64,000 bases of DNA. Origin: Phoronis australis (lineage: Eukaryota; Animalia; Phoronida). Below are positions 9,121 through 63,397 of the stretch, one piece after another. Positions within the stretch are counted from its first letter, which is position 1. Each line of letters opens with the position of its first letter. The DNA lies in the NCBI GenBank assembly GCA_002633005.1, contig NMRA01000043.1, forward strand, positions 1,134,689-1,198,688, written 5' to 3'. The notes under the pieces are model-generated. The model saw only the letters and a program-made list of their open reading frames with translations. It was not told where the DNA came from and ran no database searches. The position numbers were made by a program, and so were the translations under genes.

Positions 9121-9159
9121 GATCAGGGTACGTGTAACCCGACCAGCTGACATAAAAAC

Positions 9160-9280: not shown

Positions 9281-9857
9281 GAGAGCTGCTAATACACAGA
9301 CANCAAGTTGAAAGTTAATAACTTTTTGAACTCCATGTCACATCAAAAAACCGGCTTAAACGGCGTTAAGAGGTTTTTTCTTCTATAACTCGGACCATAG
9401 GCCTTTAAGTGCGATTGTCGAGAACACAGATTTTTTCGGTAAATAATAGCAAACGGTCTACAAACTGTTCTCTCGTAGACCGATTTGAGGAGATCAATCA
9501 TCCTTCCAATTAACACTGGAAAACCCACAATTCTGATACCTAATGTACGATACCTGTCAACCAAAAAACATTCGGACATGTCCGCGAATGTTACCTTCCA
9601 ACCAATGGGAATGTCCCGTCGGGCGCTTAGTCATTCTGCTAATCAACAAGAAGTCAGGTTCACTGTTCCTTGACAGTGCTGCTGTTCTCATCAGTAGGGA
9701 AGAGTGTAAAAGAGAACAAGACTAGGATATTGGTCGCTGAATAAGATCGAACAGCTTATGTCGAAGGTTTCCATGAGTAGCAGAAGGTGGTTCACAATTT
9801 AAATCGTGCGCAGAAAAGGGCCTAGAGCAAAAAAAAAAACAAAGTAAATTAACTTAC

Positions 9858-9967
9858 GGAATCCAAGCCATGTTGTAGCTCTTCAGACTCTTAAAATCAT
9901 CATCTAGCAATTCTTCGGCTACTAATTTAATAATCTTCCTGTGATGCTTCATTTTTTGTTGTTCCAT
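9858..9967 (-). CDS. First coding exon of DED-gene paralog A (N-terminal half of a death effector domain)
   Basis: Acceptor ctctctttctacag before 9986, ATG at 9967, donor GTAAGT after 9858; MEQQKMKHHRKIIKLVAEELLDDDFKSLKSYNMAWIP; homologous in sequence, phase and flanks to 40715-40603 and 46659-46547. Confidence 0.75.
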
Positions 9968-24830: not shown

Positions 24831-25670
24831 CACTATTTTACTCGCGATTTTCATCTAAACGTGAGGATACCCACAGTGTAATCATTTTTGTCTCTTGTTG
24901 AAAACATTTATTGTCAAAGAACTGGGGGTTGCTCTGCGATGATGTGTAAGGTCAAGTTTGAGTTAAGTTTAACTCTGTAGGCAGACATTTTTCAAGAACT
25001 AACGATTAGTCGGCTGCGGTCTCTGGGTCAATAGAATAGCTGGCAATGGACATGCAAAACGCGCAATAATTTTATTTGGAACGGGCCCCAATATTCTTAG
25101 AACAGCACAGTTATTTAAAAGAGTGATTTGAACTAGGTTTCATTGAAAGTGGATTGTATGGAACAAAAACCGCTAACGCCGAAATCAGTGATGTTTAATA
25201 TGACCATTTTATGCAATGTATCAAATAGGTAAATATACCAAATTCGTTTAAGTGTGAGCTGCAACACAAAAAATGGCGCCTCATACGACACGTCACATCA
25301 CGTCCATTAACAATAGAATGTCCTATCTTTGTCTTCATTTATATGCACTTCGAACTAATGAATATTGACCAAATAGCAATTGTAATTCATATTTTATCTT
25401 AAAAGATAATAGACAGAGAAAGTGCATGTTTTTATAATCTGAAAGGCCGACAGTCAGCTTTTTGGACTATTTCCCCTTTAAACTAGCGACCTAGACCTGT
25501 CCAGGTTTGAGAAAAATAATCATGTCCTTTCAGAGTGCAAAATATTTTCTATTTCCCCAGCTAGGCATCCCATTTTATGCATACAACCCACGGTTTGACC
25601 TGTTGTTACCACCACTATTTCAGACAGGTTTGACATCATAGGGACAATGATATTTATTTCAGCTTTTAAG

Positions 25671-28600
25671 CTGTTTAAAACACGTTACAATGCCGCCACT
25701 TTTTTAAACTATTCGCTCGCCCTTCTCAAAGGCGATATTTTGCTTTTGCTTTGGAAAAATCTGTCAACCTGCCGGCAAATCAATGCGTGCTTTTACTTCC
25801 TTCCATCACAATGCTTTAAGAAATTGTCATTCGTAACTAAGGTGGTAGACAGAACCTGTCGGTATCAGAAACATTGGTTTTGCTCCTTTTGTGCGGAGCA
25901 GGTCAATTACTGCATTAGCGATGACTCCAAGGCAATAAAACACTGGGTGAAATAAACTAAACTATCGTGGACTAAAACTGGTGTTTTTTCTATCAAATTG
26001 GCTTCCGAAATTGAATTCTCTATTAAAAATTGTGTTTGTGTAGTTTGTTCCCGAGAAATACGATAAATATTATCCAAATACGACAGTCATTGTTGTGCTT
26101 ACCAAGGGAAGTGTGTTTGCTGTAATGCCGGATACGCAATTGATTTATGACCTGTGAACGTCAACAAAAGATTGCAAGAATGCTTTAACAATAAAAAAAA
26201 CTTGTTACCTGATCCTGGAAACTCCTTTCGTGTGGAGTTGAAACTGTACGGTGTGCATTAATGATTATAGCATAAAACTACCCATATTAAAAACATGTAA
26301 AGCATATAGGGACACATCTATAAGTTCGACCTGGCACATTTGATAGAATTTCATTCACTCAATCTGAGAAAGAAGGACTCGCACAGAGACGCCTCAGTGA
26401 CAGGTTGAAAGAACATCACACCTCAGAGAAAAGTAACATATATAGGCATTGTATTAGCTACAATCACCAAGCCAACTCTGTTAGTATTATCTGCAGAGAA
26501 CCTAATGAGGAGTTAATGTACATTGAAAAGTCATTAGCCATTCAGAATCAGCATGCCACTGATTCACTGAATAACATGCAGAGCTCAGTGACCCTGCAAC
26601 TATGGTGATGACCAGCTACTGACTATATTCTATGTATCTCTCACTTCACTCTATGGATGTTACCTGAGCTGTATGTTGGCACTTGTTGTCCTAAATTGTT
26701 GTAAATATGATCCTGATGATGTCTAATGAAAAGACGCAACGTTGAATTGAACATGAACTTTTTTATTTGTGCAGCGATCGTCCGTTTGTTTTATCTTGCG
26801 TTTGTTCTTAACTTTACGGACTACTCTTGTTTGAAAGGCAATGAACACTTGGCTTTGGTGGAGATTTCTGACGTCAGACCATAATTAATTTGCAGGAAAT
26901 TAGCTATCGGCAACTGCCTGTTTTCGCGGTAATCCTACGTTAGTGATTCTTTGGTTTTAAACAAGGTTACTTTACAAACCCAAAGTTTGAATACTGAAAT
27001 TAAATTATGTAATGGACACTCAATTAGCTTTCGTGGGCGGGCTAAAACAGAGTTTCGGAATTGTTTCAGTACTGCATATGAAAAATCCGGATGAGTACGA
27101 ATGTCGTCTGCCATGAACGTCAAAAAGTAACCTTAATGGGTTTCAACATTTTTGTTTGCAAATCACCACTCGAAGGCAGTTTAACATAATAAAGTGAAAG
27201 AAGGTATTCAAAAATTTGTTTGGTGCTGATTTTGTTAAGTTTCATGAAAATTAATTTAAGAAAGTTTTGGGCAAACCAATTTTTATGGCCCAACTTTTAT
27301 ATTTTATTATGTAGCCTAGTGAGTGACGTCAGTGGTGATCGAGGAACAGATAAACTAAAGTGTCTGGTTTATATTTGCCGGTTTTGCGCCAGCATGACAA
27401 GAAACTGTAGGNTGTTTAAAACACGTTACAATGCCGCCACTTTTTTAAACTATTCGCTCGCCCTTCTCAAAGGCGATATTTTGCTTTTGCTTTGGAAAAA
27501 TCTGTCAACCTGCCGGCAAATCAATGCGTGCTTTTACTTCCTTCCATCACAATGCTTTAAGAAATTGTCATTCGTAACTAAGGTGGTAGACAGAACCTGT
27601 CGGTATCAGAAACATTGGTTTTGCTCCTTTTGTGCGGAGCAGGTCAATTACTGCATTAGCGATGACTCCAAGGCAATAAAACACTGGGTGAAATAAACCA
27701 AACTATCGTGGACTAAAACTGGTGTTTTTTGTATCAAATTGGCTTCCGAAATTGAATTCTCTATGAAAAATTGTGTTTGTGTCGTTTGTTCCCGAGAAGT
27801 ACGATAAATATTATCCAAATACGACAGTCATTGTTGTGCTTACCAAGGGAAGTGTGTTTACTGTAATGCCGGATACGCAATTGATTTATGACCTGTGAAC
27901 GTCAACAAAAGATTGCAAGAATGCTTTAACAATAAAAAAAAAACTTGTTACCTGATCCTGGAAACTCCTTTCGTGTGGAGTTGAAACTGTACGGTGTGAT
28001 TATAGCATAAAACTACCCATATTAAAAACATGTAAAGCATATAGGGACACATCTATAAGTTCGACCTGGCACATTTGATAGAATTTCATTCACTCAATCT
28101 GAGAAAGAAGGACTCGCACAGAGACGCCTCTGTGACAGGTTGAAAGAACATCCCACCTCAGAGAAAAGTAACATATATAGGCATTGTATTAGCTACAATC
28201 ACCAAGCCAACTCTGTTAGTATTATCTGCAGAGAACCTAATGAGGAGTTAATGTACATTGAAAAGTCATTGACCATTCAGAATCAGCATGCCACTGATTC
28301 TCTGAATAACATGCAGAGCTCAGTGACCCTGCAACTATGGTGATGACCAGCTACTGACTATAGTCTATGTATCTCTCACTTCACTCTATGGATGTTACCT
28401 GAGCTGTATGTTGGCACTTGTTGTCCTAAATTGTTGTAAATATGATCCTGATGATGTCTAATGAAAAGAAGAAACGTTGAATTGAACATGAACTTTTTAT
28501 TTGTGCAGCGATCGTCCGTTTGTTTTATCTTGCGTTTGTTCTTGACTTAACGGACTACTCTTGTTTGAAGGGCAATGAACACTTGGCTTTGGTGGAGATT

Positions 28601-29130
28601 TCTGACGTCAGACCATAATTTATTTGCAGGAAATTAGCTATCGGCAACTGCCTGTTTTCGCGGTAATCCTACGTTAGTGATTCTTTAGTTTTAAACAAGG
28701 TTACTTTACAAACCCAGAGTTTGAATACTGAAATTAAATTATGTAATGGACACTCAATTAGCTTTCGTGGGCGGGCTAAAACAGAGTTTCGGACTTGTTT
28801 CAGTACTGTATATGAAAAATCCGGATGAGTACGAATGTAGTCTGCCATGAACGTCAAAAAGTAACCTTAATGGGTTTCAACATTTCTGTTTGCAAATCAC
28901 CACTCGAAGGCAGTTTAACATAATAAAGTGAAAGAAGGTATTCAAAAATTTGTTTGGTGCTGATTTTGTTAAGTTTCATGAAAATTAATTTAAGAAAGTT
29001 TTGGGCAAACCAATTTTTATGGCCCAACTTTTATATTTTATTATGTAGCCTATTGAGTGACGTCAGTGGTGATCGAGGAACAGATAAACTAAAGTGTCTG
29101 GTTTATATTTGCCGGTTTTGCACCAGCATG
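25671..29130. repeat. ~1.74-kb near-identical tandem duplication (25671-27410 / 27413-29130)
   Basis: Near-identical ORF pairs; junction is a single n at 27412. Confidence 0.9.
26380..26790 (+). mobile_element. Penelope-like element 3' end (GIY-YIG C-terminus plus pLTR); copy at ~28115-28520
   Basis: TQRRLSDRLKEH...SNIYRHC...H...IICRE...IEKSLAIQ...SLN...LQLW*; downstream CTGATGA-GTCT..AGAC-G(C)AAC hammerhead-like motif. Confidence 0.75.
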
Positions 29131-29254
29131 ACTATTTGACTTTTTTAAAGTATTATAACGAAAGAATACTTCTTGCTAAGCAATTGAAAGAAGCTCCTGA
29201 GCACCAGTTTTCATGAAACACCTGCTAGTATAGAAAAGTTGAGAACATTGCAAG

Positions 29255-30050: not shown

Positions 30051-32194
30051 CTAGTATCAGGAAATACTTAGTAAATAAAATCTTATTTTCGATACCCTTT
30101 CGTTATTTTCTTTTCGCCTTTCGTGCCACAAGCGTTTTTTTACCTGTATTTGACCCTTCTCTGTGAGCAGATAATTACCGGTTGTCATCGGTTACTTCCG
30201 TACCCACATCTCTGGCTCGTCAGTTCAGGAACTTGTCCTGAATGCCGCCATTTTTCCTTGTAACTGAATGTGCTATCACTTGCTCGAAAAGTCTTCATTA
30301 TTTTGTTTTAGTAATATCTCGCCATTCGTTTGTATATATAGTGTTTTTATAGTTCGTAGTGAGTGGTCGTTAATTTTTTTGGAATGTTACGCGTACTTTT
30401 GATTATTATGTTAAAATAGCTTTGGCGTTTAGTTCCTGTTATGTAGGACGGTCGAACCTAGGGACGATATGAGTCGAACCAATTTTTTTGGTTTTAATTT
30501 TTTTTCGTTTTGAAAAAATACTTTGCTATCATCGGAAATATAATGCATCCTACTCAGTAAAAATCGAAAAGTATCAAAATTGGGGCAAGCAATGCAAAGT
30601 TATTGAAATTTTTGTGTCGAAATTTGGGATCACTTTGTTTGGATCGGGTCAGTTTTCACCAAACTTCAGCCTCGCAGTTGTTACTTATAAATGTGCTCTC
30701 AATCCCCGTTCTGGCTGCACCGAAAACATGGCGACTTTTGCTGAACTGAAAGGCATTTCAATCGGTTACTTTGTAATTTTTGAAGATTTAACGCTGACAC
30801 ATTTTGACAAACGTTGCTACAAAAAAGGAACTTTGTTCAATTTTCGTGTTTTTGTGCAAAAATATATGGCATATTAGAATTGTTTTCCTATAACTTTCCC
30901 ATTCAGGTGATCTTACACCAAGTTAAAAAAATAGTTGAAATAATTTTGAAATGGTTTTTTATTTGACTGCTAACTGCTGTTCAAGGCTTGATTAGGTGTC
31001 ACAAAATGAATCATATTTTTCAGAATTTTAAGACTAAATTGCTTTGAAGTCATGTTTTGTAACTTGTTGCTTTCTTTACTCAGGTAATCAAGTCAACAAT
31101 ATGAAGAATCTTAACTAGAGAAATAGGCTATGTTGGATTGTGAAGCTTCAATCATGCTTGTCAAATTTTGGTGTAAGGATAACACTATTCGGTCACCATG
31201 GTAATAGTTACAGGCATGTCCACTTTCATATCATGAAAACTTGTGCTGCTGGATAGTGTTTTTAATGCTTAAATGTTAAGTACTGTGGTACTGTGCATTT
31301 TAAGTTACTTATGGTGAAAGGCTGAATCATTTTGGCTTACATAGCGCTTCTATACTGAGATTATTTCAGTTTTGACTTATGTATAGTAGATATAAATGTC
31401 AACTGCCTTAAAAGACTTTAAGTAGTAATACACTTTATTCACGATAAGACAAAAATACAATTAATACAAATTAATGCTTATGGAAACTCGGTGAAGGAAC
31501 TGAAACCAAATATAGAGCTCCGACTGAAAGCACTTGATTTTGATTTGAACTGTGGAACACCTAAAGGATTAAATCATTATCGTTCACTGATTTCTTCTTT
31601 CATTTCAATGATTGAGCGACCAAAGCATGATATGATTAGCTTGCCATGTATAATATGTTCACTAGCATCTTCAGGCAACATTTCTTGATGCCTTAGGTTT
31701 ACTATTATTCCAATAGATTGATACATAAATTTTAAAAACATCATATATTTGAAAACCAAGTTCACTGGAAGTTTTTCATTTCATGGATTCTTGCAATTCT
31801 GTCACTCAAGTTACAATTATCACTATGCTTCAGTTGTAAGGTCACTTCCTTCGTACTCACTGCTTAATAAGTAAAAAAATGATAACATTTCGTATTGGAC
31901 TTGTCATACTTATATGCTCGAACGAGCCCCCTATTTGGAGAAATGGAAAAAGGTCTGTCTCGGGCAGAGAACCAAGAACTCCGAAAACTAGAAAACGAGA
32001 CAAAAGTTCACTACAAGGCAGGAAGTATCAAAATTTGGCGTCTGCAATTCATAGCTCAGAACACACTCTGTGAATCTTATAGTAAAAGGTACACATTCTC
32101 AAAAATTCTCTTAGTCTTCGCACTGAATTGTCTGTTGAGCAAATTCACCAGCTACTGGGTTTTTGCCTTAATACTACCTATTTTTATGCAACAA

Positions 32195-33300
32195 CAGATT
32201 CTACCAGCAATGCCATGGAGCTGCTATGGGATATCGTGTGTATCCGACGTATACATGGAGGAGTTTGAACAGACAGTCTTGGCGTCGGCACCCAGACCCC
32301 CACCCATCTGGCTCAGTTACGTGAACGACACTTTTGTCATGCTCCCGGAAAATGACATCTCCACCTTCACTGGTCACATCAACAGTATTGACAACTGTAT
32401 TCAATTCACCATGGAGACAGAAACCAACAGAGCCTTACCTTTCTTGGATATATGTGTACACGTAGTTGATAATGGTTCCATCAAAGTCAAAGTCTACAGG
32501 AAACCGACACATACAGACCAATACCTCCAGTTCTCATCCAACCACCCTTTAAAGCACAAACATTCTGTCGTTTGTACCCACCTGGATAGAGCTGATCGTT
32601 ACATCACTGACTACCGATACTATGTCGAAGAGGTTGACCATGTTGAAGATGCCTTGCGAGCTAATGGATACCAGGAATGGATGTTCACAGACCCCCCTAG
32701 TCGTAAATCTTCGGAAAGAAACGATGGTCCCTCCGTTGCCATCCCATACATAAGAGGAGTGTCTGAAAGCCTACAACACACTTACAGAACACACGGAATT
32801 TCTTCATACATGAAACCTATATACACCCTCCATTCCGTACTAGTCAGAAGCAATGACCAAACCCCGATGGCTAAACAATGTGGGGTCATATACCAGCTGA
32901 AATGTGACCAGGATCGCAATCACTCCTACATTGGAGAAACAAAGAGACCGTTCCTTACCAGATTCAAAGAACATCAGAAACTAAACAGACCAACAGCTGT
33001 GGGGGAACACATATTGGCGACTGGGCATTCCATCTCTCTTGCGTCATCCAAAGAACAAAATTGGTGTGTTCGCAAGCTCAAAGAGTCCATAAACATCAGC
33101 AGTCACCGCCCCCTCTTGAACCGGGACCGAGATCTCCACTTACCCCCGTGTGTTCCAACATTCTTAACCTCATTCATTGACAAAGACCTGGCGGACAAGG
33201 TCGAAACCTCTGCAAACAACCTACAGTACCACGTCTCTAAGTAAGTGATCATCTTATACTACAATGCCTCTAGAGACCAATGACGAACCTACTCTCCAAT
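32195..33300 (+). mobile_element. 5'-truncated Penelope-like retroelement (RT C-terminal part plus GIY-YIG endonuclease)
   Basis: FYQQCHGAAMG (frameshifted), WLSYVNDTF (YVDD mutated), FTMETE..LPFLD, VYRKPTHTDQYL..SNHP, GVIYQLKC...YIGETKR..RFKEH. Confidence 0.9.
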
Positions 33301-33867: not shown

Positions 33868-34110
33868 TTAAGTGGTCCACGATTTGTCTCCGTACTGAAC
33901 TCTGACCCCCTCCCCTAGTAGTTTAAGGGTTATCTTGCGCATCGCGTGTTCCACGGCGCCGCCTTTACCTTTATAACCCTTTGCCTGAGCGGTGACGCCA
34001 GAGCATATCGCCAAACCATCCCAAACTAATTTAAACTTTCTTATTCTCCAATCGACTTTTATGTCGCACACCATTGGGTTTCCTTGGTTAGGTCCTGGGA
34101 TGATGGTTAA
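33868..34110 (-). CDS. Terminal exon: anti-lipopolysaccharide-factor-like domain
   Basis: Strong acceptor ctttttctttttgattacag; Cys(34068)-x20-Cys(34005) basic/hydrophobic hairpin and GAVEH (33960-33946), as in horseshoe-crab ALF. Confidence 0.8.
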   Translation of the reverse strand, partial: LTIIPGPNQGNPMVCDIKVDWRIRKFKLVWDGLAICSGVTAQAKGYKGKGGAVEHAMRKITLKLLGEGVRVQYGDKSWTT

Positions 34111-37100
34111 CTGTAATCAAAAAGAAAAAGTTCAGAAACCTTCCCATTTTATACGTAATTTTTTACCGTCATTTAACCAGAAGTGGAATTTTAATGACGT
34201 TATCCAGCAAGAACAAGCATTCGCTCTAAACTACAATTTTTAGTAACATAGTTTATACCGTCTTTAGTTGCCGGCAAAAATCACAAGATTTTCTCAAGCG
34301 ACTGCGCTGCGTGGTGTTCCAGTGAAAGCATATGCACGAGTGCCTTTTTGCACGTAGAAATATTCTTAATCTACAGGTATGCGAGGTTTTGCTTCATGTA
34401 CGCGCACGTTTGCTTAATCTGCGTGTAATTTTGCCTAATCGACGTGTACTTTTGCTAAATCTACGCGTATTTTTGCCTAATTTGCACGTCGTGATTTTGC
34501 TTAATCTAGGCGTATTTTAATTCTTAAACGATCATTGTTCTGTTCTTAATCCATTAAGTTGATAGCACGGACGTGATTGGACTATATGAACTGGTTAAAC
34601 GTACGCGTAGATAAGCAAAATACGCGTAAATTTAGCACCTTTCTACGAGCAGAAAGATACATGTTTAAGAACCCCTTGGCGCTTCATAGAAGCGGGCTGA
34701 GACCGAGTCATTTACTGGATTTCCGTCTCTAAATAGCTTGTGTGGTAGAGTGCATAAGACATCTAAAACGCACCTTTTCTGTTGGACCAGATGAAATACC
34801 CATCGTAACAGTGACGTCAGTGAGCTTCTCAAGCTTTTCTACAGGTGGCGATGAGGTACTTCCTGTAGAACACACCAAGAGGTTAAAAGCTATTTATTGC
34901 CGGCATTGAGGTAACTACATGAACTTGAATTCATACGTCGTAAAAAAGAAAGCAAGCTTAGGAAGTTCATGTTTTCAAACGTAAACGAATTTAAATATTC
35001 ATCAGATAACTTTTGGTTAAAGCATCAGATTTGTCTTCAAATGTATTGAGTCCACATGCTGAGACAAGGAAACCACAAGCACCCGACGAGAAAGTTCGTA
35101 AAAAGCTCGTCAATTTGTAAAACCTTCATTTTAAAGCTCGATATCTGAACCAAGAAATTTCGACGAGGCAGGACTGACTTGTCCATTACTACCGACAATT
35201 ATAATCTCAGTGAAATCGTTTTCCAGGCTATGTTACTCGAAGGGAAATAAAGCCTCTCTTTGGAACATCGTTTATTACTGGGCGATCATCGGCTCTTGCA
35301 CACTCTAAGCAGGTTATATGCACTACCATATTGCACGTTACAAATTGCTGCCAGTCTACATGTACCTTGTATCAGAGATCGCGTCTCGGCTGTGGAATCA
35401 ATCTCCGTCCCGCTTCCATGTATTCCTGCAAATTTCCATTCTCTCATTAGACATTCTTCCTAATCTCAACACCAGATGTTCATTACAGCACAGAAATTTG
35501 AGGAGCTTGTTTAGACTTTTTCATTCTTAATTAAATACCAAACGAGTTCAGTGAACTTCGTGAATTTTGAGTTTAAAGGGATCTCTATCAGTTTGTGACT
35601 TTACTGGCGTAAGGAAATTCCTACACCAAATTAAAATTTGTAATCCACACTAGAGGAATCTAAAGCTCATTGCGTGACCGGTGGACAATGAATTATCGGT
35701 AGACTTGTCGAGAGCTCTTTAATTTCTCACCTGACGTGCTGTAAAGAAGCCAACCAATCAAGGGAATCACAAGTGACCACATTGCACGAGGAAAATTCTG
35801 GGGCAATTTCTGAAGCAATCGCCTCCGAAACGTGATGACACTTGCGTCGCCTGAAATAGACGCGGTGCGTATGTACGTGTAGATCGGCATTTCCTCAATG
35901 TTTTTGAAAATGTTTTGAATTTCGCTTCTGAAATTCCTGGTCATACAAATTGTGAACACAAACCGATAAGAGATTAATTGCACTGGTGCAAAGCGAAAAC
36001 AAGGCGTGGAGGGAATGAACGGATTGTGAACATTAACCATAAGATTAATGTCCTGTTATTAAGATGAATATTTATGTTATGTTCGAACCCACGTATAATA
36101 ATATAATCTTCACATACTCGCTGACTGAGTTGTACAATTGTTAAGTAACAAAACGAGCCACGTGGTCACATGTTTACCACTGAAATGGCCACTCCATTGG
36201 TCTTAACATCCTTTCTAAAGTAGAATTGGCCAATTTACACTTACCTCTAGTCTATTTATAGTGGAATAACGTTTCTATCTGTCATTTCTCAGGAGATACA
36301 AACTTCTTAAAAGAACAAGCACGGGAGTATGGCACACTCATAGCGGTCGATGATGAGCAAGCTGGGATTGCCTTAAGGCTGTCAGTGCAATGCTATAACC
36401 ACTACACCACCGAGTCATACATTAACTTAGAGGGAAATTTGTTATAGATACACCTTCTTTGGGAGTGGTAAGCAGGCTTTATTTGCCTGCTTGCAGGGTG
36501 ACTGAATACATTGTGTTTAGCGATCTTCCTTATGGCTTAGCATGTTTCAAGGTCAAGTATCCGGATACTTTCCCACTGGCTGTTCACATGTGATCTGGTA
36601 CATCTTCAGAGACCCTGGTCTCTTGTTTAGCATTTTACCACAACCACATGGGATTCTTAAAGTAATATAAGTGACGCTCTTCTTTTTTTCCATGTCTGTT
36701 TCTGATTTGACATTGACCAGCTGTCTACCCAAGTTGTCTGAGCTACGATATACAGTTCTTATATTGAATTCCTTGCATATACGTCGCAGTTTTTCAGAAT
36801 TCCAGATATGTATGTGAGACACATAGCTTGTGTGGTGTATTCTTCTACCCTGTGCCTCTTCTCTGTTATGATGTTTCTGATCCCACGAATTCTTTGATTA
36901 ACCCCTTATGTTGAATGATTATACCGGGGGTCCATCTCAGATTGGAGTGTTGGGTTACACAATTCCTTTTTTCTTGATGCCAGACACTTGATAACACCTA
37001 TCTTAACTCCTTTGATGGGAGCGGAATTGTAGTCAAGGTACCGTCCAGTTTGAGTCATGTTTAGTACACCAATGCATTTAACTGCTCTCCATTTCCAGCC

Positions 37101-40100
37101 ATGAACCCATCAAGGAATGGTATGCTGTTATTGTCCCCCACTTCCTGGTGTATCTTAATGTAGTTGTTGTTTACGTGCTAAGGAATATCTCGATATTGTC
37201 TGGGCGGTGGTTATGTATAACGAATAGTCATCTTCATATCGTTTCCACATTTTGGGGGAATTTACTGGTTGGGATTGAGAAGTGTTTGCTAGAACCTCCG
37301 AATGCACAAAATACTAGTAATAGCGATGATGCCATTGGCAGTTCACAGGTCTGCTTGAAAAAGAATTTCACCATTTGGAGGATGTAATTCGCTGATATAT
37401 TTTTGTTCTGAGTTTTTGTATGGCCAATCCCCGTTTTCGATCTCAGTATCGAAAGTACCACTGCTGTTGGAAGACTTGTGAACAGGCTTTAACCATTGAA
37501 ATTCACCATTAGGTAATTGAGGTCAGTGCTGATTAATGTCAGCATTTTCGCGGAGTCAGTTTTTGCCAATTAGTGGGGATGTCATGCCGCTGAGGAACTT
37601 AGCTAGCATGTGACATCTGAAGATGGCTTCCGAAGAAATGACCGACCGAAATGTCGTGCCAAAGTAGATAGGCTGGAAGTTGGCGTAAACAGACCAATAG
37701 ATTTTAGAAAGTAATGATGTTTCTACATCACCTCAAAGCAGTTTTAGAAAAACTCAATTTGTCTTACAACTGCATAAACTTATCATTCAGTTACGCAGGC
37801 TTAGAAGTTTCCTAATCTGGTAGACTCAGATTCCATGTAACTTACTTGGAGTGCTTGCAACTTCTTTTACTCGTTTGCCGTCGTATTCTGAAAATTGAAG
37901 CAATGGACTGCACTTGGAATTTAAATTGTTTGTAGTCACGAATCGTTTGTTTCATTATGTTTTACTGGACAATGAGGTTATGCTAAAATAGATGAATGCA
38001 ATTCACTCTCTACATTTATTTCTCTGCAAACATAAAATGCACAGTCAGAACTGTAGAAGGGTAAAAGTTCGTACCCGAGAACACATCAAGTAAGGACCGT
38101 AGATACAACCATAATAGTGGAGTCTTCCTTTACAGTCACAAACACACACACGCACAAAACGGGTAGCTTAATCAATACGTTAGCAGCCAAAAGATGGCGC
38201 TTCACTACATTACTCGGAATGAAAACCATCTTTGGATTTGGGAGAACTGACCGTTCGTTATTATTTGAGAGATGGCTCAATAAATTGGCTTGTTACGGCG
38301 GGTCATTTTAAGCGACGAGCACGATCTCAGTTCTTAGTGAATTGTCAGTTGCCCCATATCCCCGAAATCATTCTACCGAAGAGTAAGGAACAAGGTATGG
38401 TAGAAGTGACGCAAATCAAATGTATGTTTTACAGCTTAGTATCATTATTTTCATATTGACTCCAATGCAAACACGGTATTGTTGACGACGAAACATCAAC
38501 TTCGCACTGAGTGTTCTTTATTCAAAATATCGTTTATTTGATGACATAATGGGCGAGTGTACCAAAATATAAAAACACTCAACCTAACGACCTTGAGTAA
38601 TTATTCAGTTTGTACGTGTGCAACGTCACACGCCTTAGACCTTTGTACGCGTGGTGAAAAGAAACTCATGTAGAACACATCGGCACTTCAAACATTATAA
38701 TTTGTACACTTTTATAAAACAGACACCTGATTATAAAGTCACTTTGAAAGAAGTCCACCGAAACGAGCTTTAGAATCCATTTCAGACAATTTGAACATAT
38801 ACACCATTCCTTTTAATCATATGACGACTTGACAGAAAGTAACGTCGAACATCACTTCTACAATTTAGACTGGTGAATCTAACTCCTTCAAAGTAGACAT
38901 ATTGCATTCAAGTAATATATTATTGTAAGTTTTGAGAAAATAAACATCTATGAAGTAGTCAGTTAATAAAACTGTCCTGCAGAAAACAAGCGTGCGTCAA
39001 CCGCAGGTCAGTTGAGAGTCGATGAGACTTTTACTTGGACTGCAGCTTCACCGAAGGTCCATACCAAGTTGTGCTTCCTCTTCCATCTTTGCGATCACAC
39101 CATCCACCTTTTTAATCAAATTATCCATTTGGTACTCCTTCAGCATTTTGATCAGCTCCACGTAATTCCCGATTCCAATAACAGCTTGTGTCTCTAATTG
39201 GTTGAGAAGTTTTTCAGTAGTAGTTATGTTCTGGAGTGTAGCTGGCCTGTACAACAAAGTTAAGAAAGGTTAATAAGAATCGCTTAAAATAGACCGAGAG
39301 TTTGGATTGGCGCGAATGCGGATGGGGTGGCCAACATCGCCCAGTCACTTTCGGCCCCTCCTCAGTCTTTTACAAGTTTCACTCTCCCGTCGATACCAGT
39401 TACTGTCCCTGAATGGTAGTCATTCTCGCCTCCCCCACTCTTAGCACGCTCCCACCTCACCCCACGCCCCGCCCATTGTAATTACAACAAAGATCTTAGA
39501 TATGTTGGTACTACAAGTACTTGACTTCATATTCATACGCATACATGTACGTGACGCATTACACTACATCTCCCTGTATCAAAACAAAGGAGTATCTATT
39601 TAGTATGTCAATCTTACGTAAACAAACTGTGTCAGGATATATTTTAACTAATGCTCTTTATATTCATAGTCCTTGAACCAGGCTGGACTCTTCGATATGC
39701 GTCCGGAACGAGTCGTGTAATCTTTGGTGACGGACGTCACAATTCCATGTGGTTCAGGGCTACGAAAAGCAGGTGTTTTCTCTGAAATAACTACTGGTCG
39801 GTCTGGGATGACACTTAGGTGAATTCAATTTGTTTTAATATCTGACCGTTTTCTCGTTGGACTATGTAACTTCTGAGCTCTGCACAATTTCTACAACAGC
39901 ATACAAAATTTCCAGAGTTCATGGATTGCATGGTTACGTGTTGACCAATGTGTAAGCGATGTACATCTCCTGTTTCTTTGTCATAGTACTATTTCTGCTA
40001 CATCTGACGAGTAGCAAGATGACACTGAACATCGTCTGCATCTGGTGACATGCATGCATGGGGGAGTATCCGTGATTCGGTGATTGAAAAGGATCTCGGC

Positions 40101-40715
40101 AGGGCGCGGCTTTTCAGCTTGTGGTCAACAGGGGTAGTACGCCATCGCCCCCTTGCGGTGATTGTTTTTTTAAACGTTTGCCTCCATATCTTAGAAGTTC
40201 CTTGGCTTATTTTCATGCTAGAGGCCGAATAGTCTGTTGCTGTGTGTTTGAGCTTTTCGCTGCTCATTTAGTGTTGCATAAGAAATTTTTTTTGAATAAA
40301 ATTCCACGACAATGAATCAAATGCTTTCTCAAAATCGATCAGTAAAAGCAATCCTGGTTTCTTAGCTGCCTGGGCACAAAACATTAAATCATATAGGACG
40401 CGGATATTTGCGTTCATAGTTCTTCCCGAAACGAAACCTGTCTGGTCCTTACCGATTAGTTTTCCCAAAACGGATTTTAACCTAAGCTATTGGTCGCTGA
40501 ATAAGATCGATCAGCGTCTGTCAAAGGTTAGCAGGAGTTGGTTCACAATTTAGCTCATGCACCTAAAAGGGCCTAGAGCAAAAACAAAACCAGTAAACTT
40601 ACATTATCCAAGTCTTGCAATAGTCCTTCAGTCTCTCAAGATCCGACATGAGCACGTGGTCGGCTACTGTCTTAATGACCAGGCGGTGCTGCCTTCTTCG
40701 TTCTTCCTGGTCCAT
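33868..40715 (-). CDS. DED + linker + anti-LPS-factor-like domain protein, 242 aa; exons 40715-40603, 39246-39065, 37887-37846, 35425-35366, 34862-34774, 34110-33868
   Basis: All introns GT-AG, phases 2,1,1,1,0, 729 nt open. MDQEERRRQHRLVIKTVADHVLMSDLERLKDYCKTWIMPATLQNITTTEKLLNQLETQAVIGIGNYVELIKMLKEYQMDNLIKKVDGVIAKMEEEAQL-EYDGKRVKEVASTP-RIHGSGTEIDSTAETRSLIQ-GSTSSPPVEKLEKLTDVTVTMGISSGPTEK-LTIIPGPNQGNPMVCDIKVDWRIRKFKLVWDGLAICSGVTAQAKGYKGKGGAVEHAMRKITLKLLGEGVRVQYGDKSWTT*. Confidence 0.75.
34345..34640. repeat. Degenerate ~20-bp minisatellite with inverted copies (MITE-like), in the last intron
   Basis: TTTTGCTTAATCTACGCGTA-like unit ~8 times, reverse copies at ~34600-34640. Confidence 0.65.
36270..36416 (-). 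mobile_element. Possible tRNA-derived SINE remnant
   Basis: Minus strand begins GACTCGGTGGTGTAGTGGTTATAGCATT (A-box-like); no clear B box. Confidence 0.35.
36550..37620 (-). mobile_element. Degraded Penelope-like element in intron 3 of the DED-ALF gene
   Basis: Fragments FFKQTCELPMASSL (cf. G.PMGS.L) and SEKLRRICKEFNIRTVYRSSDNLGRQLVNVK...RIPCGCGK, many frameshifts. Confidence 0.75.
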
Positions 40716-41926
40716 GGTCTCTTAGTGAATGAGAGTACTGTTCATTGCGTCATTTAACACAGACAGCAGTTGCTGCATTGTTTTTCACAAAATATAGGGC
40801 AGTTTTTTGACAAAGTGTTCGTATAAATAACTATATAACTCTTTAATCCGACATATCAAATTTCAACTAGACTACCGTATAGAATGTATCTTGAGTATGA
40901 ATAAACAAATAAAAATGCCAATAACTTTCGCTCAAACACAAGTCTTCATCAGGGGAATACAGAGAGAATGGAAAGTACAGACAAGGTATGTGCGAATGAT
41001 AAAATAGGAACTACAGGTTGGGGTACAGTTCAGCAACGCTAGAACCTACGTTAGGACCTCCCTAAAAGCAAGAGTTCGCGAGATTACATGACACTGTCGT
41101 GTATTTCAAACGAGAACTCGTGGTTTTGGCTAGATTTTTCAAACCGCGAGAGAGCTACTAAACTCAACCTGAGCCCGGTCTCCAATCTCCGTACTCAGAC
41201 TCATACTCATACTCGAGATTTCATACTCAAAATCGTGGTCACTGGAGTCGTACTCAAAAAGCGTATCCAATTTTGCATTTCGAGTAGACTCCAAACGTAC
41301 TCAAATCTGACACTCATACTCGAGTTGCTATGGAACTCTTTATGATGTGAAATGCAAAACCACGCAAAGTCGCGCTGATTCATCGTTCCCTATTGGCATA
41401 GACCACCTCAGCAACTACATTATCGTCTACTGTCTTTACAACTACAAGAGTAGGCCTATAACGTGGAATTCTAAGTGTTCTGTACCTGTTATTCATTTTT
41501 TCAGTTTCAATACAATATTCTTATACCATTTCTTTGATACATTTGGCAATTATTAAGCTTTACCTCTTGAGTTCCTCATCTCCCGAAAATATCTTAAGAA
41601 ATTTGTAACAGCTTATCACATCAAAGAACCCCTGTTCTCTCTTGCTAATTTAGTATTGACGTAGAACCCATTGCTGTGTAGGAACAGAGACCGTAGAGAG
41701 AGAGAGAGACGTTTCACCTAGCGAAATCCTATTGGACGACCACTGGCGGCCATTGTTGTTTCATGGACCGTAGAGACGTCTAGCGGGTGTGTGTGCGAAA
41801 AAAGGAATATGGCTGATACTCTGGTCAGTGGTCACAGAGACAAGATATTTTATCTGATCTTGTAGTTCATATAGATTTCCCATAGTTAATACTTCTGAGA
41901 ATAGTGCTGCTTCAAGTAACTTCAAA

Positions 41927-42322
41927 NNNNNNNNNNNNNNNNNNNNNNNNNNNNNNNNNNNNNNNNNNNNNNNNNNNNNNNNNNNNNNNNNNNNNNNNNN
42001 NNNNNNNNNNNNNNNNNNNNNNNNNNNNNNNNNNNNNNNNNNNNNNNNNNNNNNNNNNNNNNNNNNNNNNNNNNNNNNNNNNNNNNNNNNNNNNNNNNNN
42101 NNNNNNNNNNNNNNNNNNNNNNNNNNNNNNNNNNNNNNNNNNNNNNNNNNNNNNNNNNNNNNNNNNNNNNNNNNNNNNNNNNNNNNNNNNNNNNNNNNNN
42201 NNNNNNNNNNNNNNNNNNNNNNNNNNNNNNNNNNNNNNNNNNNNNNNNNNNNNNNNNNNNNNNNNNNNNNNNNNNNNNNNNNNNNNNNNNNNNNNNNNNN
42301 NNNNNNNNNNNNNNNNNNNNNN
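41927..42322. other. Assembly gap
   Basis: Run of N. Confidence 1.
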
Positions 42323-43091
42323 ATAAATTGGCTTGTTACGGCGGGTCATTTTAAGCGACGAGCACGATCTCAGTTCTTAGTGAATTGTCAGTTGTCCCAT
42401 ATCCCCGAAATCATTCTACCGAAGAGTAAGGAACAAGGTATGGTAGAAGTGACGCAAATCAAATGTATGTTTTACAGCTTAGTATCATTATTTTCACATT
42501 GACTCCAATGCAAACACGGTATTGTTGACGACGAAACATCAACTTCGCACTGAGTGTTCTTTATTCAAAATATCGTTTATTTGATGACGCAATGTGCGAG
42601 TGTACCAAAATATAAAAACACTCAACCTAACGACCTTAAGTTAATTATTCAGGTTGTACGTGTGCAACGTCACACGCCTTAGACCTTTGTACGCGTGGTG
42701 AAAAGAAACTCATGTAGAACACATCGGCACTTCAAACATTATAATTTGTACACTTTTATAAAACAGACACCTGATTATAAAGTCACTTTGAAAGAAGTCC
42801 ACCGAAACGAGCTTTAGAATCCATTTCAGACAATTTGAACATATACACCATTCCTTTTAATCATATGACGACTTGACAGAAAGTAACGTCGAACATCACT
42901 TCTACAATTTAGACTGGTGAATCTAACTCCTTCAAAGTAGACATATTGCATTCAAGTAATATATTATTGTAAGTTTTGAGAAAATAAACATCTATGAAGT
43001 AGTCAGTTAATAAAACTGTCCTGCAGAAAACAAGCGTGCGTCAACCGCAGGTCAGTTGAGAGTCGATGAGACTTTTACTTGGACTGCAGCT

Positions 43092-46000
43092 TCACCGAAG
43101 GTCCATACCAAGTTGTGCTTCCTCTTCCATCTTTGCGATCACACCATCCACCTTTTTAATCAAATTATCCATTTGGTACTCCTTCAGCATTTTGATCAGC
43201 TCCACGTAATTCCCGATTCCAATAACAGCTTGTGTCTCTAATTGGTTGAGAAGTTTTTCAGTAGTAGTTATGTTCTGGAGTGTAGCTGGCCTGTACAACA
43301 AAGTTAAGAAAGGTTGATAAGACTCGCTTAAAATAGACCGAGAGTTTGGATTGGCGCGAATGCGGATGGGGTGGCCAACATCGCCCAGTCACTTTCGGCC
43401 CCTCCTCAGTCTTTTACAAGTTTCACTCTCCCGTCGATACCAGTTACTGTCCCTGAATGGTAGTCATTCACGCCTCCCCCACTCTTAGCACGCTCCCACC
43501 TCACCCCACGCCCCGCCCATTGTAATTACAACAAAGATCTTAGATATGTTGGTACTACAAGTACTTGACTTCATATTCATACGCATACATGTACGTGACG
43601 CATTACACTACATCTCCCCTGTATCAAAACAAAGTAGTATCTATTTAGTATATCAATCTTACGTAACAAACTGTGTCAGGATATATTTTAACTAATGCTC
43701 TTTATATTCATAGTCCTTGAACCAGGCTGGACTCTTCGATATGCGTCCGGAACGTGTCGTGTAACCTTTGGTGACGGACGTCACAATTCCATGTGGTTCA
43801 GGGCTACGAAAAGCAGGTGTTGCCTTTGAAATAACTACTGGTCGGTCTGGGATGACACTTAGGTGAATTCAATTTGTTTTAATATCTGACCGTTTTCTCG
43901 TTGGACTATGTAACTTCAGAGCTCTGCACAATTTCTACAACAGCATACAAAATTTCCAGAGTTCATGGATTGCATGGTTACGTGTTGACCAATGTGTAAG
44001 CGATGTACATCTCCTGTTTCTTTGTCATAGTACTATTTCTGCTACATCTGACGAGTAGCAAGATGACACTGAACATCGTCTGCATCTGGTGACATGCATG
44101 CATGGGGGAGTATCCTTGATTCCGTGATTGAAAAGGATCTCGGCAGGGCTTTTCAGCTTGTGGTCAACAGGGGTAGTACGCCATCGCCCCCTTGCGGTGA
44201 TTGTTTTTTTTAACGTTTGCCTCCATATCTTAGAAGTTTCTTGGCTTATTTTCATGCTAGAAGCAGAATAGTCTGTTGCTGTGTGTTTGAGCTTTTCGCT
44301 GCTCATTTAGTGTTGCATAAGACAATTTTTTTGAATAAAATTCCACGACAATGAATCAAATGCTTTCTCAAAATCGATCAATAAAAGCAATCCTGGTTTC
44401 TTAGCTGCCTGGGCACAAAACATTAAATCATATAGGACGCGGATATTTTCGTTCATAGTTCTTCCCGAAACGAAACCTGTCTGGTCCTTACCGATTAGTT
44501 TTCCCAAAACATATTTTAACCGTTCAGTCTCAGCCGACGAAGTCAATTTATATGTCACATTGAGTAAGGATATGGGTCTCCAGGTTTCAAATAATGTTTA
44601 CTTTTATCTGCTGCTNTCCCCCCCCCCCCCCTCTTTCTGTGTTGATGATTACTGACCAACAGCAAAACCAGTTTTAAGTAAGCGAACAACGAAATGTCCA
44701 ATGTCAGACCAGAAAGTTAAAAAATTCCAATGAAAACCATCGGAGCCTGGGCTCCTGTTGTTTCTCATTTTTCAAGCATCGTTTGACTTCATCCTATGTA
44801 AGAAGACCATCTAATTTTTCTTTTTCTGTCTCATTCAGTTTGGAAACACACACCTTATGAAGTAGAGTTTCTAAAGCAGTATTTCTGTATTTGTACAGAT
44901 TTTCACGAAAAGTTTTGGTTTCCTGAATAACTTATTCTTCACTATTGGTTTTAGTATTGCCATATTTCCACAAAAAACATAAACTTACTTGTGTAATGCC
45001 TATTTTCTAAGTGAAGAAAATATTTGGAAGGTTTTTCTCCCTCTTCCATCCATCTTGCCCTCGACCTAGTCATAAGACCTCCTAACATATTTTGCCTTAG
45101 CTGGACAGTTTGATTACTTTTTGTTCCAGTAGTCCCCTATCAAGTCTTAGACTTTTTTCCAATAACCTTATTTCTTCGATAAGATGCTGTTCAACTCTAT
45201 CACTCTTTCTTTTTTAAGTAAATACCAAAGGAAATTGTTTTGTCGCGAATCTCCATCAACAACGTTTCAAGAAAAAGTTGATCATTTATAGACAATTGTA
45301 AATCTGAATTACTTGTGCTATCGACTGTCTGAATGTCGCCAGTCATGTACTTCTGCTTAACTATTGTAATGGTATCCTTGACCGCAGCAATATATTCAGA
45401 GTTTTTAAAGAGATAGTTATTAAATTTCCAAATGATTTTCTCCTACTGGAAACAGCACTTTAAAAAACCTACACCATGGAATAATGAAACCGGTTACTGA
45501 ATTCTATTAAGGAGTCATCAATATCGGCTAAAAGGTTTTCAGAAATTAGAAAAATATCTAGTCTGGAACGCTTCCTTCCAGCTCCCCAAGTGTATTCCTA
45601 CTATTGGGGTTCAGTTACCGCCACACATCAGTAATAGACAATTCTCTACAAGTCTCCATCAACTTAATCCGTGACTTCGGGTTGTTAACCTGTCGTGCCT
45701 TAGACCGATCGAGAGCAAGATTAAAATCGCCTGCCCAAATAACTGAGTAATTTCCTATATCTTGAATATATATAGATTATTACATGGCGAAGTCGTTATC
45801 TCCCGTTATCTAGAGCCCGAGTGGACTTTGGAGAATTATCGCCCGAGAGGCGTCAGCCCCCAAACGGTGTAATCCGGGACGAGCTTCGTAGACCACAAGA
45901 AGACAGACTGCACTCGCAGCAAAAAGTCTCTACATGAACACTTCCTTCAATTCCAATAAACACTCCAACCGCGCCGACCAGTTAATCCCAGTGTCTGTCA

Positions 46001-46659
46001 GAACAAGCGAGAAACACTCAGCGTCACACGTGTGATTTTGCAAAGTCTTCAGAGATCTTGCTTTTCTCGTGAAAAACTAGGCTTGTATAGCCTAATGATT
46101 AGGAACAATTGTCGAAAATACAGAATTTTTGGTAGATATTAGCGAACGGATTACTCACTGTTCTCTCGTAGACCGATTTTAGGACATCGGCCAAATTTCC
46201 AAGGTGATTAATAAACACAGGACCACTCACAATTCTGATATGCATTATGCTACGGAAAGTCCAATATGTTAACTGTCAACCCAGAAACATTTGGATAGTT
46301 ACCTTCAAACCAATGGGAATGTCCGAGTGCTTATTCTTTCTTCTAACCAACAAAAAGACAGATTTACCATCCCTTGACAGTGCTGCTGCGCTTATCGGTT
46401 GGAAAGAGTGTAAAACAGAACAAGACTAGGATATTGGTCGCTGAATAAGATCGATCAGCGTCTGTCAAAGGTTAGCAGGAGTTGGTTCACAATTTAGCTC
46501 ATGCACCTAAAAGGGCCTAGAGCAAAAACAAAACGAGTAAACTTACATTATCCAAGTCTTGCAGTAGTCCTTCAGTCTCTCAAGATCCGTCATGAGCACG
46601 TGGTCGGCTACTGTCTTAATGACCAGGCGGTGCTGCCTTCTTCGTTCTTCCTGGTCCAT
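43092..46659 (-). CDS. Second copy of DED exons 1-2 (46659-46547, 43290-43109; read-through stop at 43092)
   Basis: Same protein as the first copy except S->T in exon 1 (LMTDL); keeps an upstream acceptor at ~46678. Confidence 0.75.
44320..45770 (-). mobile_element. L1/Tx1-clade ORF2 remnant (APE endonuclease to RT); shorter piece at 40290-40485
   Basis: SVIWAGDFN...DVWR...SRLDIFLIS endonuclease motifs; DQTGFVSGR...NIR...LLLIDFEKAFDSLSW RT motifs; stops and frameshifts. Confidence 0.85.
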
Positions 46660-60833: not shown

Positions 60834-63397
60834 AGCTGGCGTGCGTTCAGTAGACGCTAGGACCTACGCTAGAACCTAGCTAAAACCTAGTCAAAGTCAC
60901 GTGTTCTTATTTAAAATGCACGGCAATATCTCACGTAATCTCGCGAAGTCTTGCTTTTTAGCGAGGTCCTAGCGCTACTAAACGGGAGGCTGTTCTGTAC
61001 CTGGCGGGAGATTCGATTTGATTGAAAGTCCTTTAACCTTTGACCTCGGATAAGTAGTAAACAAGTATTCACGCGGTTGAGCGGTTCCGAGGTGGTTCCG
61101 TTAAATCTTTTTTTCTCGCTACGCAGTATATGTTTTGTATTTGAAGTTCCCCGAGAATGAAGATAAGGTATTTATTTTACTAGACACATGTGAAATATTG
61201 TAAAAATGGTCATTTTTTGTGAATAAAGTTGGATATAACCTTAAGAAGGACTTGTTGATTTTAAAGCACCACGGGACCGTGACTCCTTGTTCTTTGCATA
61301 AAGACACCCCCAGTCAAAACAGTTACTCATTTCACTAGAATATTTGCGTTTACTCCCACCTCTGTTTATTGCACGATAGTGTGTCCCAGGTTGCCAGAGT
61401 CTCCTCCGCGACCAATAATTTCACGTTTGCCTACTATTGAATACTAGTAAGACTTCCTACGCCAGTGTTAACTATACATCGGCGAAAGGCACCACGTATT
61501 TGCCTTGATGTATGAGTTTGAGCAACGCTATTAGACAAATAATTTAGTTACGCGAACAAAGTAGGTTAACTTTCGTAACATACAATTACTTTTCACTACC
61601 CACGTTTTGGAAGTATTGATAGAAACACTGTTCATTAAATCACTTTTTTATTAAGAATACATTGATATCAGATAGCATCCGATAATTACGTTAACCGATG
61701 TGCAGTTCCATTAGGACAAATAGTCCCCTGCGCTCGAACAACGCCATGAGTGTATCCAAGCACACTGAATAAAACATAACTCGTACAATTCACTACAATT
61801 TGCTCATATACACATTATTCATGAACTCCCATTTTAAAAGTGAGCATATTTTTTAGGCTTTAAAAACAATGCATTCTGCTCTTAATTACAGCGTGCTCTT
61901 TATTTTTATGTCTCAAATGAATTGTTTTATAAACCTAAAAAGACGTTCTCTATTGAAATGGCAACTGCGTGAATAAGGTACATGTATATACTTGATTATA
62001 GACTGCCGTTAATCACAGACGTGCACTATTCATAGGATGGCGTCATCAGCACTACAAAAATGTTGTACACGATTTGCTGCCGTATTTTACATTAACCCCT
62101 GTGCCGAACAGTTTCCTCGTCACGTCACACAGTGCGTTCACAATCGCGCTTGACTTGCTGGAGCGCCCCCTAGTAGAGCCAGAAGCACCCGGGCACGTCG
62201 CAGTTGCATCGTAGACCAATTCCCATTTGCTGATTCTCCATTTCCACTCAACGTCGCAGTTGACAGCGTCGCCTTGGTTTGCTCCGGGGGTAATGGTTAC
62301 CTTTGAAAAATAAATCTTTCAAGTCATGTCTGAGCATAATGTTAGAATTATGAATGTGACTATTTGACTGCGGTTCCCGGCATATGACCACCCGTATCCG
62401 AAATATGACTCTAATTTTTACTCATGTGTTTCGTACATAGGTGTATACACCTGAGCTTCAGTCAGAGGCACTAGCAGCTATATGTTGTACACATCCAGAT
62501 CTTGTGTGATCTATCTCCATTCTCTTAGCATTTTTTATTTATATTAAGTGTTCGTGCCGTTTCAAGTACTTGCCCTCCTTGGTTTGCTCAAGTTCTTCGC
62601 TTGTGTGCCTAATCATTTCCGGATATAAAGGAACAGCTTCGAATAAAGGCGCATGAGCCAAATGAAATACGCGCATACTCACTACCAGCACGAATTCGGA
62701 GTTGTGCTTTAAAACGAGGCGTTGTGTCCAATATACAATGGTTATGCATGTTTGGAACACGCACGTTTGCGTTGTTAAAATTGATACTTAAACGAGGCTT
62801 TGTGTCCAAAACAACAATGCACAACAATAAGTTTTTGCAGCTCCATCAAAGCGTGAAAGTAGTGAATAACATACAAAGATAAAACAGAGTTGAAAACCAC
62901 CGTGTTTTGTCGTCCAGGAACCCTAAAATGAGGGGAGGTGACTGTTGTTTACAAACATGCTGACACCTTCAGAAGTTGTCTAATTCACTGTACCATATCA
63001 ACAAACCTCAGTGAACACTGCAACATTGCGATGTCAGAGAAGTACTGTGCGACACAAACGGCTGGGCGTAGCGGTATACCAGTAACGTGAAACTGTTGTG
63101 TTTGAGGACCTAAATAATCCTGGGATCTACGTTCTTTGGAGAAAGTTTATTTTTTTGCAAAAAATCGGGACCACTGCCGCAAGACCGACCAAAAACGTTC
63201 GAGAGGAGTGAGAACGTTTTGCCGACAAGCGAGAGACCTGCCTCCCGTTCAGTAACGCTAGGACCTCGCTAAGAAGCAGGACTTCGCTAGATTACGTGAG
63301 ATATTGCCGTGCATTTTAAACGAGAGCACGTGACTTTGACTAGGTTTTAGCTAGGACCTAGCGTAGGTCCTAGCGTCTACTGAACGCACGCCAGACT
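60834..63397. mobile_element. Non-autonomous DNA element with ~160-bp TIRs
   Basis: CTGGCGTGCGTTCAGTAGACGCTAGGACCTACGCTAG... (60836-61000) inverted at 63235-63394; older family fragments at ~11175-11250, 41030-41130, 46985-47090. Confidence 0.8.

Follow-up and report, generated by a model that had tools for sequence, protein, structure and literature searches.

Six minus-strand exons in a 64,000-nucleotide stretch of Phoronis australis DNA (the window) are best explained as the gene for a predicted type II membrane protein of 262 or 306 amino acids, with a DED-like domain inside the cell and a disulfide-bonded ALF-like domain outside. We give this reading a probability of roughly 0.4. The outer domain is supported as a distant relative of ALF, a likeness decided by sequence and cysteines, and is not a member of the ALF family in the strict sense. 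It is encoded by a last coding exon, of which the window holds a second, paralogous example:

33868..34110, minus strand: ALF-like last coding exon, 80 amino acids and a TAA stop (Pfam, profile search, predicted structure)
62052..62300, minus strand: paralogous ALF-like last exon, 82 amino acids and a TAG stop (tblastn, same phase-0 start)

The 80-codon frame of the 34-kb exon runs on the minus strand from 34110 to 33871, with its TAA stop at 33870-33868, and encodes the Cys15-Cys36 hairpin, a third strand, a helix and a conserved C-terminal tail. Its AG acceptor is strong, within the top 0.2% of window AGs by a simple splice score. The paralogue is 45% identical (tblastn E 2e-21), and identity between the two exons at the three codon positions is 0.60, 0.75 and 0.31, with pS at 0.78 (synonymous sites saturated) and pN at 0.35. 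This pattern argues that both exons are under constraint at the protein level, and on these sequence grounds the ALF-like exon is evidently real, coding and duplicated, more than chance. Upstream exons of the 62-kb paralogue were not found in the 1.7 kb left to the end of the window. The paralogue has four cysteines (15, 36, 58 and 78), of which the extra pair (58, 78) may link the C-terminal tail to the helix, and its hairpin carries a net negative charge, with 4 acidic residues against 3 basic ones.

The original prediction described the domain as sitting on one phase-0 exon and proposed a modular origin by exon shuffling. The preceding intron is indeed phase 0, but the exon is a TAA-terminated last exon with a single phase-0 boundary and not a symmetric phase 0-0 cassette, so intron phase offers no argument for cassette shuffling. 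A modular origin is still plausible, since the same core occurs elsewhere as tandem repeats or as a C-terminal module. The hairpin was said to carry 5 basic and 3 acidic residues alternating with hydrophobic ones. Counting the Cys15-Cys36 22-mer gives the same numbers (5 K/R, 3 D), and the alternation is strict in strand 1 but only partial in strand 2, where it is broken by V29 and L33. It was also correct that the N-terminal helix of ALF is not evident: none is predicted, the elements being strands at residues 16-24, 27-36 and 39-45 and a helix at 49-66. In shrimp ALF genes this helix is encoded by exon 1, off the hairpin exon (according to passages of PMC6213531), so its absence from the ALF-like exon says little alone. 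The stalk exon upstream holds no hydrophobic helix, only one short polar amphipathic stretch.

Several searches bear on the relation to ALF. Pfam PF11630 matches the 34-kb exon with E 0.033 (14.8 bits) and the 62-kb paralogue with E 0.0015 (19.1 bits), both below the gathering score of 25 bits. With a profile of the two exons, the sole match in the PDB (177,635 sequences, E up to 10) is shrimp ALFPm3, 2job, at E 0.5; a PDB search with the single protein sequence gave no match for the exon. C15 and C36 align gap-free with C34 and C55 of 2job, both cysteines in register, and in both exons they flank a 22-residue hairpin, as in ALF. A HMMER search of the exon against 1.84 billion representatives returned six matches, four of them Cys-less tandem-repeat proteins above the PF11630 cut-off. 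The closest single domain is P0006, another of the six, with 43% identity across residues 17-69. Two candidates were rejected: the pomegranate repeat protein P0001 is a repeat artefact with no matched stretch and no PF11630 match, and L001 is a chance match of 14 residues. The profile search brought in 12 further proteins, including Symbiodinium P0018, which has a GBP-like GTPase, a DAC domain and an ALF-like C-terminus. This chain of GTPase, diadenylate cyclase and ALF-like domain, found in P0018 and P0021 (Symbiodinium, EukProt), is an unusual, immune-looking architecture. When a profile of 54 repeat units was used, both exons scored better (E 3e-6 and 0.005) than any of the 3,409 reversed decoys (0.98), a test that is not fully independent because the repeats themselves were found using the exon. 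PF11630 is matched by 16 of the 21 members of the family alignment A4. In the ESM Atlas, ALF clusters appear for the exon at 0.81 and 0.78, as leads, and nothing appears for the paralogue. Word-indexed homologue searches gave no match for the exon, and crustacean ALFs are absent among the close relatives that the homologue searches retrieved.

Passages of PMC6213531 restrict ALFs to marine chelicerates and to crustaceans and describe them as stand-alone secreted peptides, and an excerpt of PMC5437397 has them as malacostracan-specific among crustacean AMPs. A rotifer paper contains a table in which one row bears a PF11630 annotation (excerpt of PMC12220480). A wider range of the ALF fold, which had been suggested in case the host was not an arthropod, is thus partly precedented by the dinoflagellate protein, the repeat proteins and the rotifer annotation. 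With ALF/scygonadin (PF11630; ALFPm3, 2job) the window domain shares two cysteines 20 residues apart around an amphipathic hairpin, a predicted third strand and long helix (fitting at 1.4-1.6 Å over about 60 residues), and probably, as predicted here, transit through the secretory pathway. It differs from ALFPm3 in that the hydrophobic N-terminal helix, the first strand (with E25/K26) and the third helix are missing, in its acidic LPS face, and in that it is predicted to be fused with a membrane anchor and a DED-like domain. The exon layout is also different: shrimp ALF genes have the hairpin on exon 2 and the C-terminal helices on exon 3 (according to passages of PMC6213531), whereas here both lie on one terminal exon. 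The Cys-less repeat proteins P0002-P0017 and P0018 have the same core, and several exceed the PF11630 cut-off. In contrast to the window domain, these proteins have tandem repeats or other partner domains, with no hairpin disulfide and no DED, and the hairpins of the repeats are net basic. In P0002-P0017 there are up to five Cys-less ALF-like repeats, and eight of these proteins have a type II-like N-terminal membrane anchor ahead of them.

Upstream of the ALF-like exon, a gene model can be built from the following features, given here in the direction of transcription:

40603..40715, minus strand: first coding exon, putative 5' part of the DED-like domain, with ATG and phase-2 donor
39065..39246, minus strand: 3' part of the DED-like domain, phase 2-to-1, matching positions 32-78 of 82 in the Pfam DED profile
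37846..37887, minus strand: linker exon of 42 nt, phase 1-1, with strong splice sites
36667..37177, minus strand: relic of a Penelope-like retroelement within intron 3, with three weak matches in collinear order (E 0.008-0.42, intron-only search)
35851..35982, minus strand: optional 5' extension that the hydrophobic exon gains when spliced at 35982, an in-phase and stronger acceptor
35731..35850, minus strand: hydrophobic exon, phase 1-1, a basic cluster followed by a 15-residue hydrophobic run
34774..34862, minus strand: Ser/Thr/Pro-rich stalk exon, 29 codons, phase 1-to-0

The six GT-AG exons join in phase to one open frame of 262 amino acids, or 306 via the acceptor at 35982, and an in-frame stop lies two codons upstream of the ATG. 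Ser, Thr and Pro make up 16 of 33 residues of the stalk (four preceding residues counted in). The hydrophobic exon has the strongest donor of the gene, within the top 0.2% of GTs, and its acceptors at 35982 and 35850 are within the top 1.3% and 6.4%. The hydrophobic run begins at Met 35782, and a start at this Met would give a precursor of 127 amino acids. There are 5 K/R and no D/E before the run, and 1 K/R and 2 D/E after it, a charge bias of the type II kind. Its best 19-residue Kyte-Doolittle mean is 1.24, against 2.47-3.07 in eight homologue anchors. In 20,000 dinucleotide shuffles of the 3-kb interval, a strong phase-1 donor together with a hydrophobic run occurred in 427, of which 120 had a Met and 32 an in-phase acceptor, with thresholds that were chosen post hoc, after the real exon was known. 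The open frame upstream of Met 35782 is mildly unusual, as 231, 45 and 20 of 500 shuffles had no stop over 22, 67 and 91 codons. Six-frame searches found no caspase QACxG or P-loop motif, and there was no tRNA or Rfam match.

The DED-like domain is predicted and atypical, and it is half-confirmed, as the tool support covers half of it. The 3' exon alone matches Pfam DED (PF01335) with E 0.0009 and 19.9 bits against a cut-off of 35.9, for half a domain; the first coding exon alone has no Pfam match and nothing relevant in searches. Judged by eye from the translation, the RxDL and FL motifs of DEDs have degenerate counterparts here. Further copies of these exons are found in the window:

43109..43290, minus strand: DED 3' exon in a second, identical copy across the N gap
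46547..46659, minus strand: first coding exon again, with 2 differences in 113 nt
9858..9967, minus strand: paralogue of the DED-like first coding exon, 39% identical, sharing its phase-2 donor and having a 5'UTR acceptor

The copy at 43109..43290 is probably the other haplotype assembled in tandem. The stretches 38280-41926 and 42323-48648, which flank the N gap at 41927-42322, are about 98% identical and probably two haplotypes. The stretch at 40760-40715 is a copy without the ~13 nt that carry a 5'UTR splice acceptor, possibly an allele affecting the start exon. This acceptor is present in the 9967 paralogue (10010-9967) and weaker in the 46659 copy (46700-46659). Downstream exons of the 9967 paralogue were not found in 1-9857. 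Along the minus strand, the order in the window is ALF exon, DED exons, ALF exon, DED exon.

For the membrane protein to exist, the DED, linker, hydrophobic, stalk and ALF-like exons would have to be spliced together in vivo, and the hydrophobic run would have to stay in the membrane as a signal anchor with the N-terminus inside. The repeated DED-to-ALF order along the minus strand speaks for joining the two. The linker's strong phase-1 donor also calls for a phase-1 acceptor downstream of the DED exons, and in the interval after the linker, much of which is retroelement relic, no convincing separate last exon for them was found. The Cys15-Cys36 disulfide would form in the secretory pathway. 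The ALF-spaced cysteine pair and the second pair of the paralogue fit an oxidising compartment, and the question raised earlier, whether the disulfide forms in the cytosol, is probably moot because the in-phase exon 35850-35731 would route the domain to the secretory pathway. A topological precedent is given by 8 of the 13 homologues examined, which have a basic patch and a strong N-terminal anchor with ALF-like repeats behind. A multivalent microbial surface ligand that binds the ALF-like domain might then cluster the protein, and the clustered DEDs might recruit a DED-bearing caspase or FADD-like protein, leading to caspase-8-type signalling; clustering and caspase recruitment follow general DED biology. 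One weak point of the membrane model is the run itself, which is weak for an anchor and is Met-led as a cleavable signal peptide would be. The combination of DED and ALF is seen once, the other exons of both paralogues not having been found in the window, and no protein of the same architecture is among the homologue and profile search matches. Searches of open-access article text listed no DED-ALF or membrane-anchored ALF protein. The death receptors of the Fas/TNFR type, acting with FADD and caspase-8, have type I topology, carry a death domain and require FADD. The predicted protein would resemble them in coupling an extracellular binding module to a cytosolic death fold, and would differ in being type II, in having the DED on the receptor itself and in an ectodomain derived from an antimicrobial protein.

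The Met that opens the hydrophobic run also allows a shorter gene of three exons with a promoter at ~35.9-36.3 kb, encoding a secreted, divergent ALF of 127 amino acids in the body fluid, with the DED exons in a separate or alternative transcript; we consider this rather unlikely. The run, with a purine at -3 and small residues at its end, has the length of a signal peptide, and at 39 strong donors in the window this exon alone gives a Met-led hydrophobic match. The product has nearly the size of the ALF cluster representatives (122-123 amino acids). In the 600 nt around the hydrophobic exon there are two kappaB-like words and one TATAAA, but the kappaB-like count is near the window background of 0.8 per 600 nt. 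The exon overlaps CCAAT- and CRE-like words by eye, so that it could be promoter DNA. Shrimp ALF genes also have three exons (as given in passages of PMC6213531). On the other hand, with a secreted form there is no evident 3' end for the DED exons, and this reading turns the in-phase acceptors and the basic cluster into coincidence. If the hydrophobic exon were skipped, or were not an exon, the result would be a cytosolic DED-linker-ALF protein of 222 amino acids, a bipartite adaptor like FADD or ASC, whose ALF-like domain would sense cytosolic microbial material or bind other ALF-like domains. The five remaining exons do join to 222 open codons with no signal peptide, a size that resembles two-domain adaptors, and the Cys-less homologues point to a fold that is independent of the disulfide. 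To make this adaptor, however, the strongest donor of the gene must be skipped, and the ALF-spaced cysteine pair is kept in both paralogues, one of which has gained a second pair; this makes the adaptor unlikely in our view. The preferred membrane protein likely arose when an upstream DED gene captured a secreted ALF-like gene by splicing into the leader of its signal-peptide exon, a route by which a short secreted isoform may coexist. Membrane, secreted and cytosolic isoforms may even all be present together.

A different kind of doubt concerns the fold. An AlphaFold model of the exon from the single sequence had a pLDDT of 41 and was discarded, and the usable model was built on alignment A4 (21 rows). 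Its member set was picked for strand register from 14 random subsets and from four hand-picked sets, the latter at two settings each; in two of the 14 random subsets nearly all rows were in the HMMER-vs-2job register of strand 1, and in a third they were partly so. Alignment A3 had a 4-residue shift and was hence not folded. The A4-based model (pLDDT 75) has three strands and a single helix, with low confidence at both ends of the chain, and no helix before residue 49, so for the domain without its stalk the ALF fold of three helices on a four-stranded sheet is not matched. In Foldseek against the PDB, dsRBDs have E 0.03-0.08 and 2job has E 0.094, with TM 0.60 and 1.4 Å over 57 residues. In VIA, dsRBDs reach Z 7.2-7.7 (the best, at 7.7, with 2.4 Å over 62 residues, matching the strand-strand-strand-helix core) against 5.8 for 2job, which fits at 1.6 Å over 62 residues. 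Among the matches listed in Foldseek and in the first VIA list, 2job has the lowest rmsd; it is absent among the best 50 matches of the second VIA list. None of the fold matches is at E <0.001 or Z >=8, and below Z 8 they may reflect just a common arrangement. Whether a different fold such as a dsRBM is the best structural match thus depends on the measure: by rank (E, Z) it is, by fit (rmsd) it is not, and nothing is significant. The claim of an ALF-like domain stands on the sequence side (Pfam, the 2job profile match, the repeats, the cysteines) and is ambiguous on the side of the fold, where dsRBDs rank above. The gene could on these grounds be a dsRNA sensor, with a dsRBD-like RNA-binding domain that has lost helix 1 and resembles ALF through a shared fold. 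Besides the lead of dsRBDs by E and Z in all PDB fold lists, viral dsRBD-type proteins make up much of the viral fold list, and Lys49 at the start of the helix is kept in both paralogues. But the tighter fit of 2job, the missing helix 1 and the dsrm profiles, none of which matches the exon or the paralogue in Pfam at E up to 1 or is among 25 of the 34 families listed for the A4 Pfam scan, while PF11630 matches 16 of 21 family members, make this quite improbable. Compared with dsRBDs, the window domain shares the core and lacks helix 1, the GPxH loop and, among the Pfam matches listed, a sequence match, and it has a hairpin with a predicted disulfide and is likely extracytosolic. Still slightly less probable is a normal arthropod ALF gene, or a set of gene fragments in decay within an assembly that was poorly collapsed, in either case without functional link to the DED exons. 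The region does contain N gaps and relics of retroelements as well as haplotype copies in tandem, but no crustacean ALF came up as a close relative in the homologue searches, the frames are intact with purifying selection between the paralogues, and exon layout and termini are unlike those of shrimp ALFs (as described in passages of PMC6213531). Separately, PDB 9qbl and 9qbq (DUF4365) are weak matches of the A4 profile (E 0.8-1.4) that lie outside the domain's best match and are probably chance.

The ligand face of the domain differs strongly from that of ALFPm3. According to an excerpt of PMC3701609, seven residues bind LPS: E25, K26, K35, K39, K50, R52 and R62 in 2job numbering. The window domain has no counterpart of E25 or K26, and K35, K39, K50, R52 and R62 correspond to D16, D20, D31, L33 and A43, so that none of the five alignable basic residues is kept. 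The paralogue retains one of the five (K20), and D16 and D31 are common to both exons. Passages of PMC6213531 describe the seven residues as not universal even among true ALFs, and in the anionic group D ALFs of shrimp, two of the seven are kept, LPS binding is 20-fold weaker, the hairpins are inactive and the peptides barely antibacterial (excerpt of PMC3701609). Group D thus resembles the window domain in having the ALF fold with LPS-binding residues lost, but it is a canonical secreted peptide that keeps two of the seven, where the window domain keeps none of the five alignable ones and has three reversed to Asp. A simulation study emphasises K39 and Y49 (excerpt of PMC10131219); of these, the aromatic position alone is kept here, as W30. 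The basic residues of the window domain are at the hairpin tip, and the sheet positions equivalent to the LPS binders of ALFPm3 are mostly acidic. With an acidic LPS-binding face, the LPS-neutralising activity expected of the 22-mer is doubtful, and classical LPS neutralisation by the domain appears unlikely. Given this face, binding of lipid A in the manner of ALFPm3 is probably not what the domain does, and the conserved aromatic-basic tip of the hairpin would be a likelier contact.

The relation between the proteins was examined in a tree of 31 rows (the two window exons, P0006, P0018 and 27 repeats from 7 of 15 repeat proteins), in which the window exons group with P0006 and P0018 (support 100/98). 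P0006 was placed beside the dinoflagellate protein by similarity only. The tree is midpoint-rooted and without arthropod ALF rows, and hence cannot test horizontal transfer, which had been raised as one explanation for a non-arthropod host. This idea found no support, as no prokaryotic or viral relative was found: scans of viral, prokaryotic-genome and metagenome contigs, sensitive to close relatives alone, gave no relatives. A broader and tentative proposal, which we hold with less confidence than the membrane protein itself, is that the window contains a tandem family of single-chain, DED-bearing type II death receptors in a non-arthropod, in which a charge-reversed ALF fold would detect a microbial ligand other than lipid A, ALF being an old eukaryotic sensing module. 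If this is true, ALF has been plugged repeatedly into immune signalling proteins, and is not an arthropod-specific peptide, and the sensing of microbes would be coupled directly to cell death. In invertebrates that lack TLR4/MD-2, the route from molecules of the bacterial surface to a cell-death response is poorly understood, and an ALF-DED protein would be a concrete, small candidate for it. Even milder readings would place the fold in a new architecture with a changed ligand, the latter predicted because the LPS face is reversed.

The window has a GC content of ~0.38 and a CpG o/e of 0.79, and it holds no telomeric repeat. Its spliceosomal introns, DED-like domain and retroelements mark it as eukaryotic and almost certainly animal, and the exon layout, unlike that of shrimp genes, together with the lack of a crustacean ALF among the close relatives retrieved, makes a non-arthropod host likely. 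The stretches 25667-27398 and 27408-29132 have a similar look of tandem haplotypes to those around the N gap. Intron 1 of the DED exons contains a broken LINE at ~46000-44300 (minus strand; RT, Pfam RVT_1 E 1e-12), which differs in length between the two haplotype copies. An open stretch at 63729-63983 (plus strand) has no Pfam match, and its Cys-rich start, judged by eye, presumably resembles a THAP zinc finger. On the strand opposite to the ALF exon and ~620 nt downstream of it, a Penelope-like frame of 452 codons lies at 31886-33244 (plus strand), with a weak GIY-YIG match at E 0.003.
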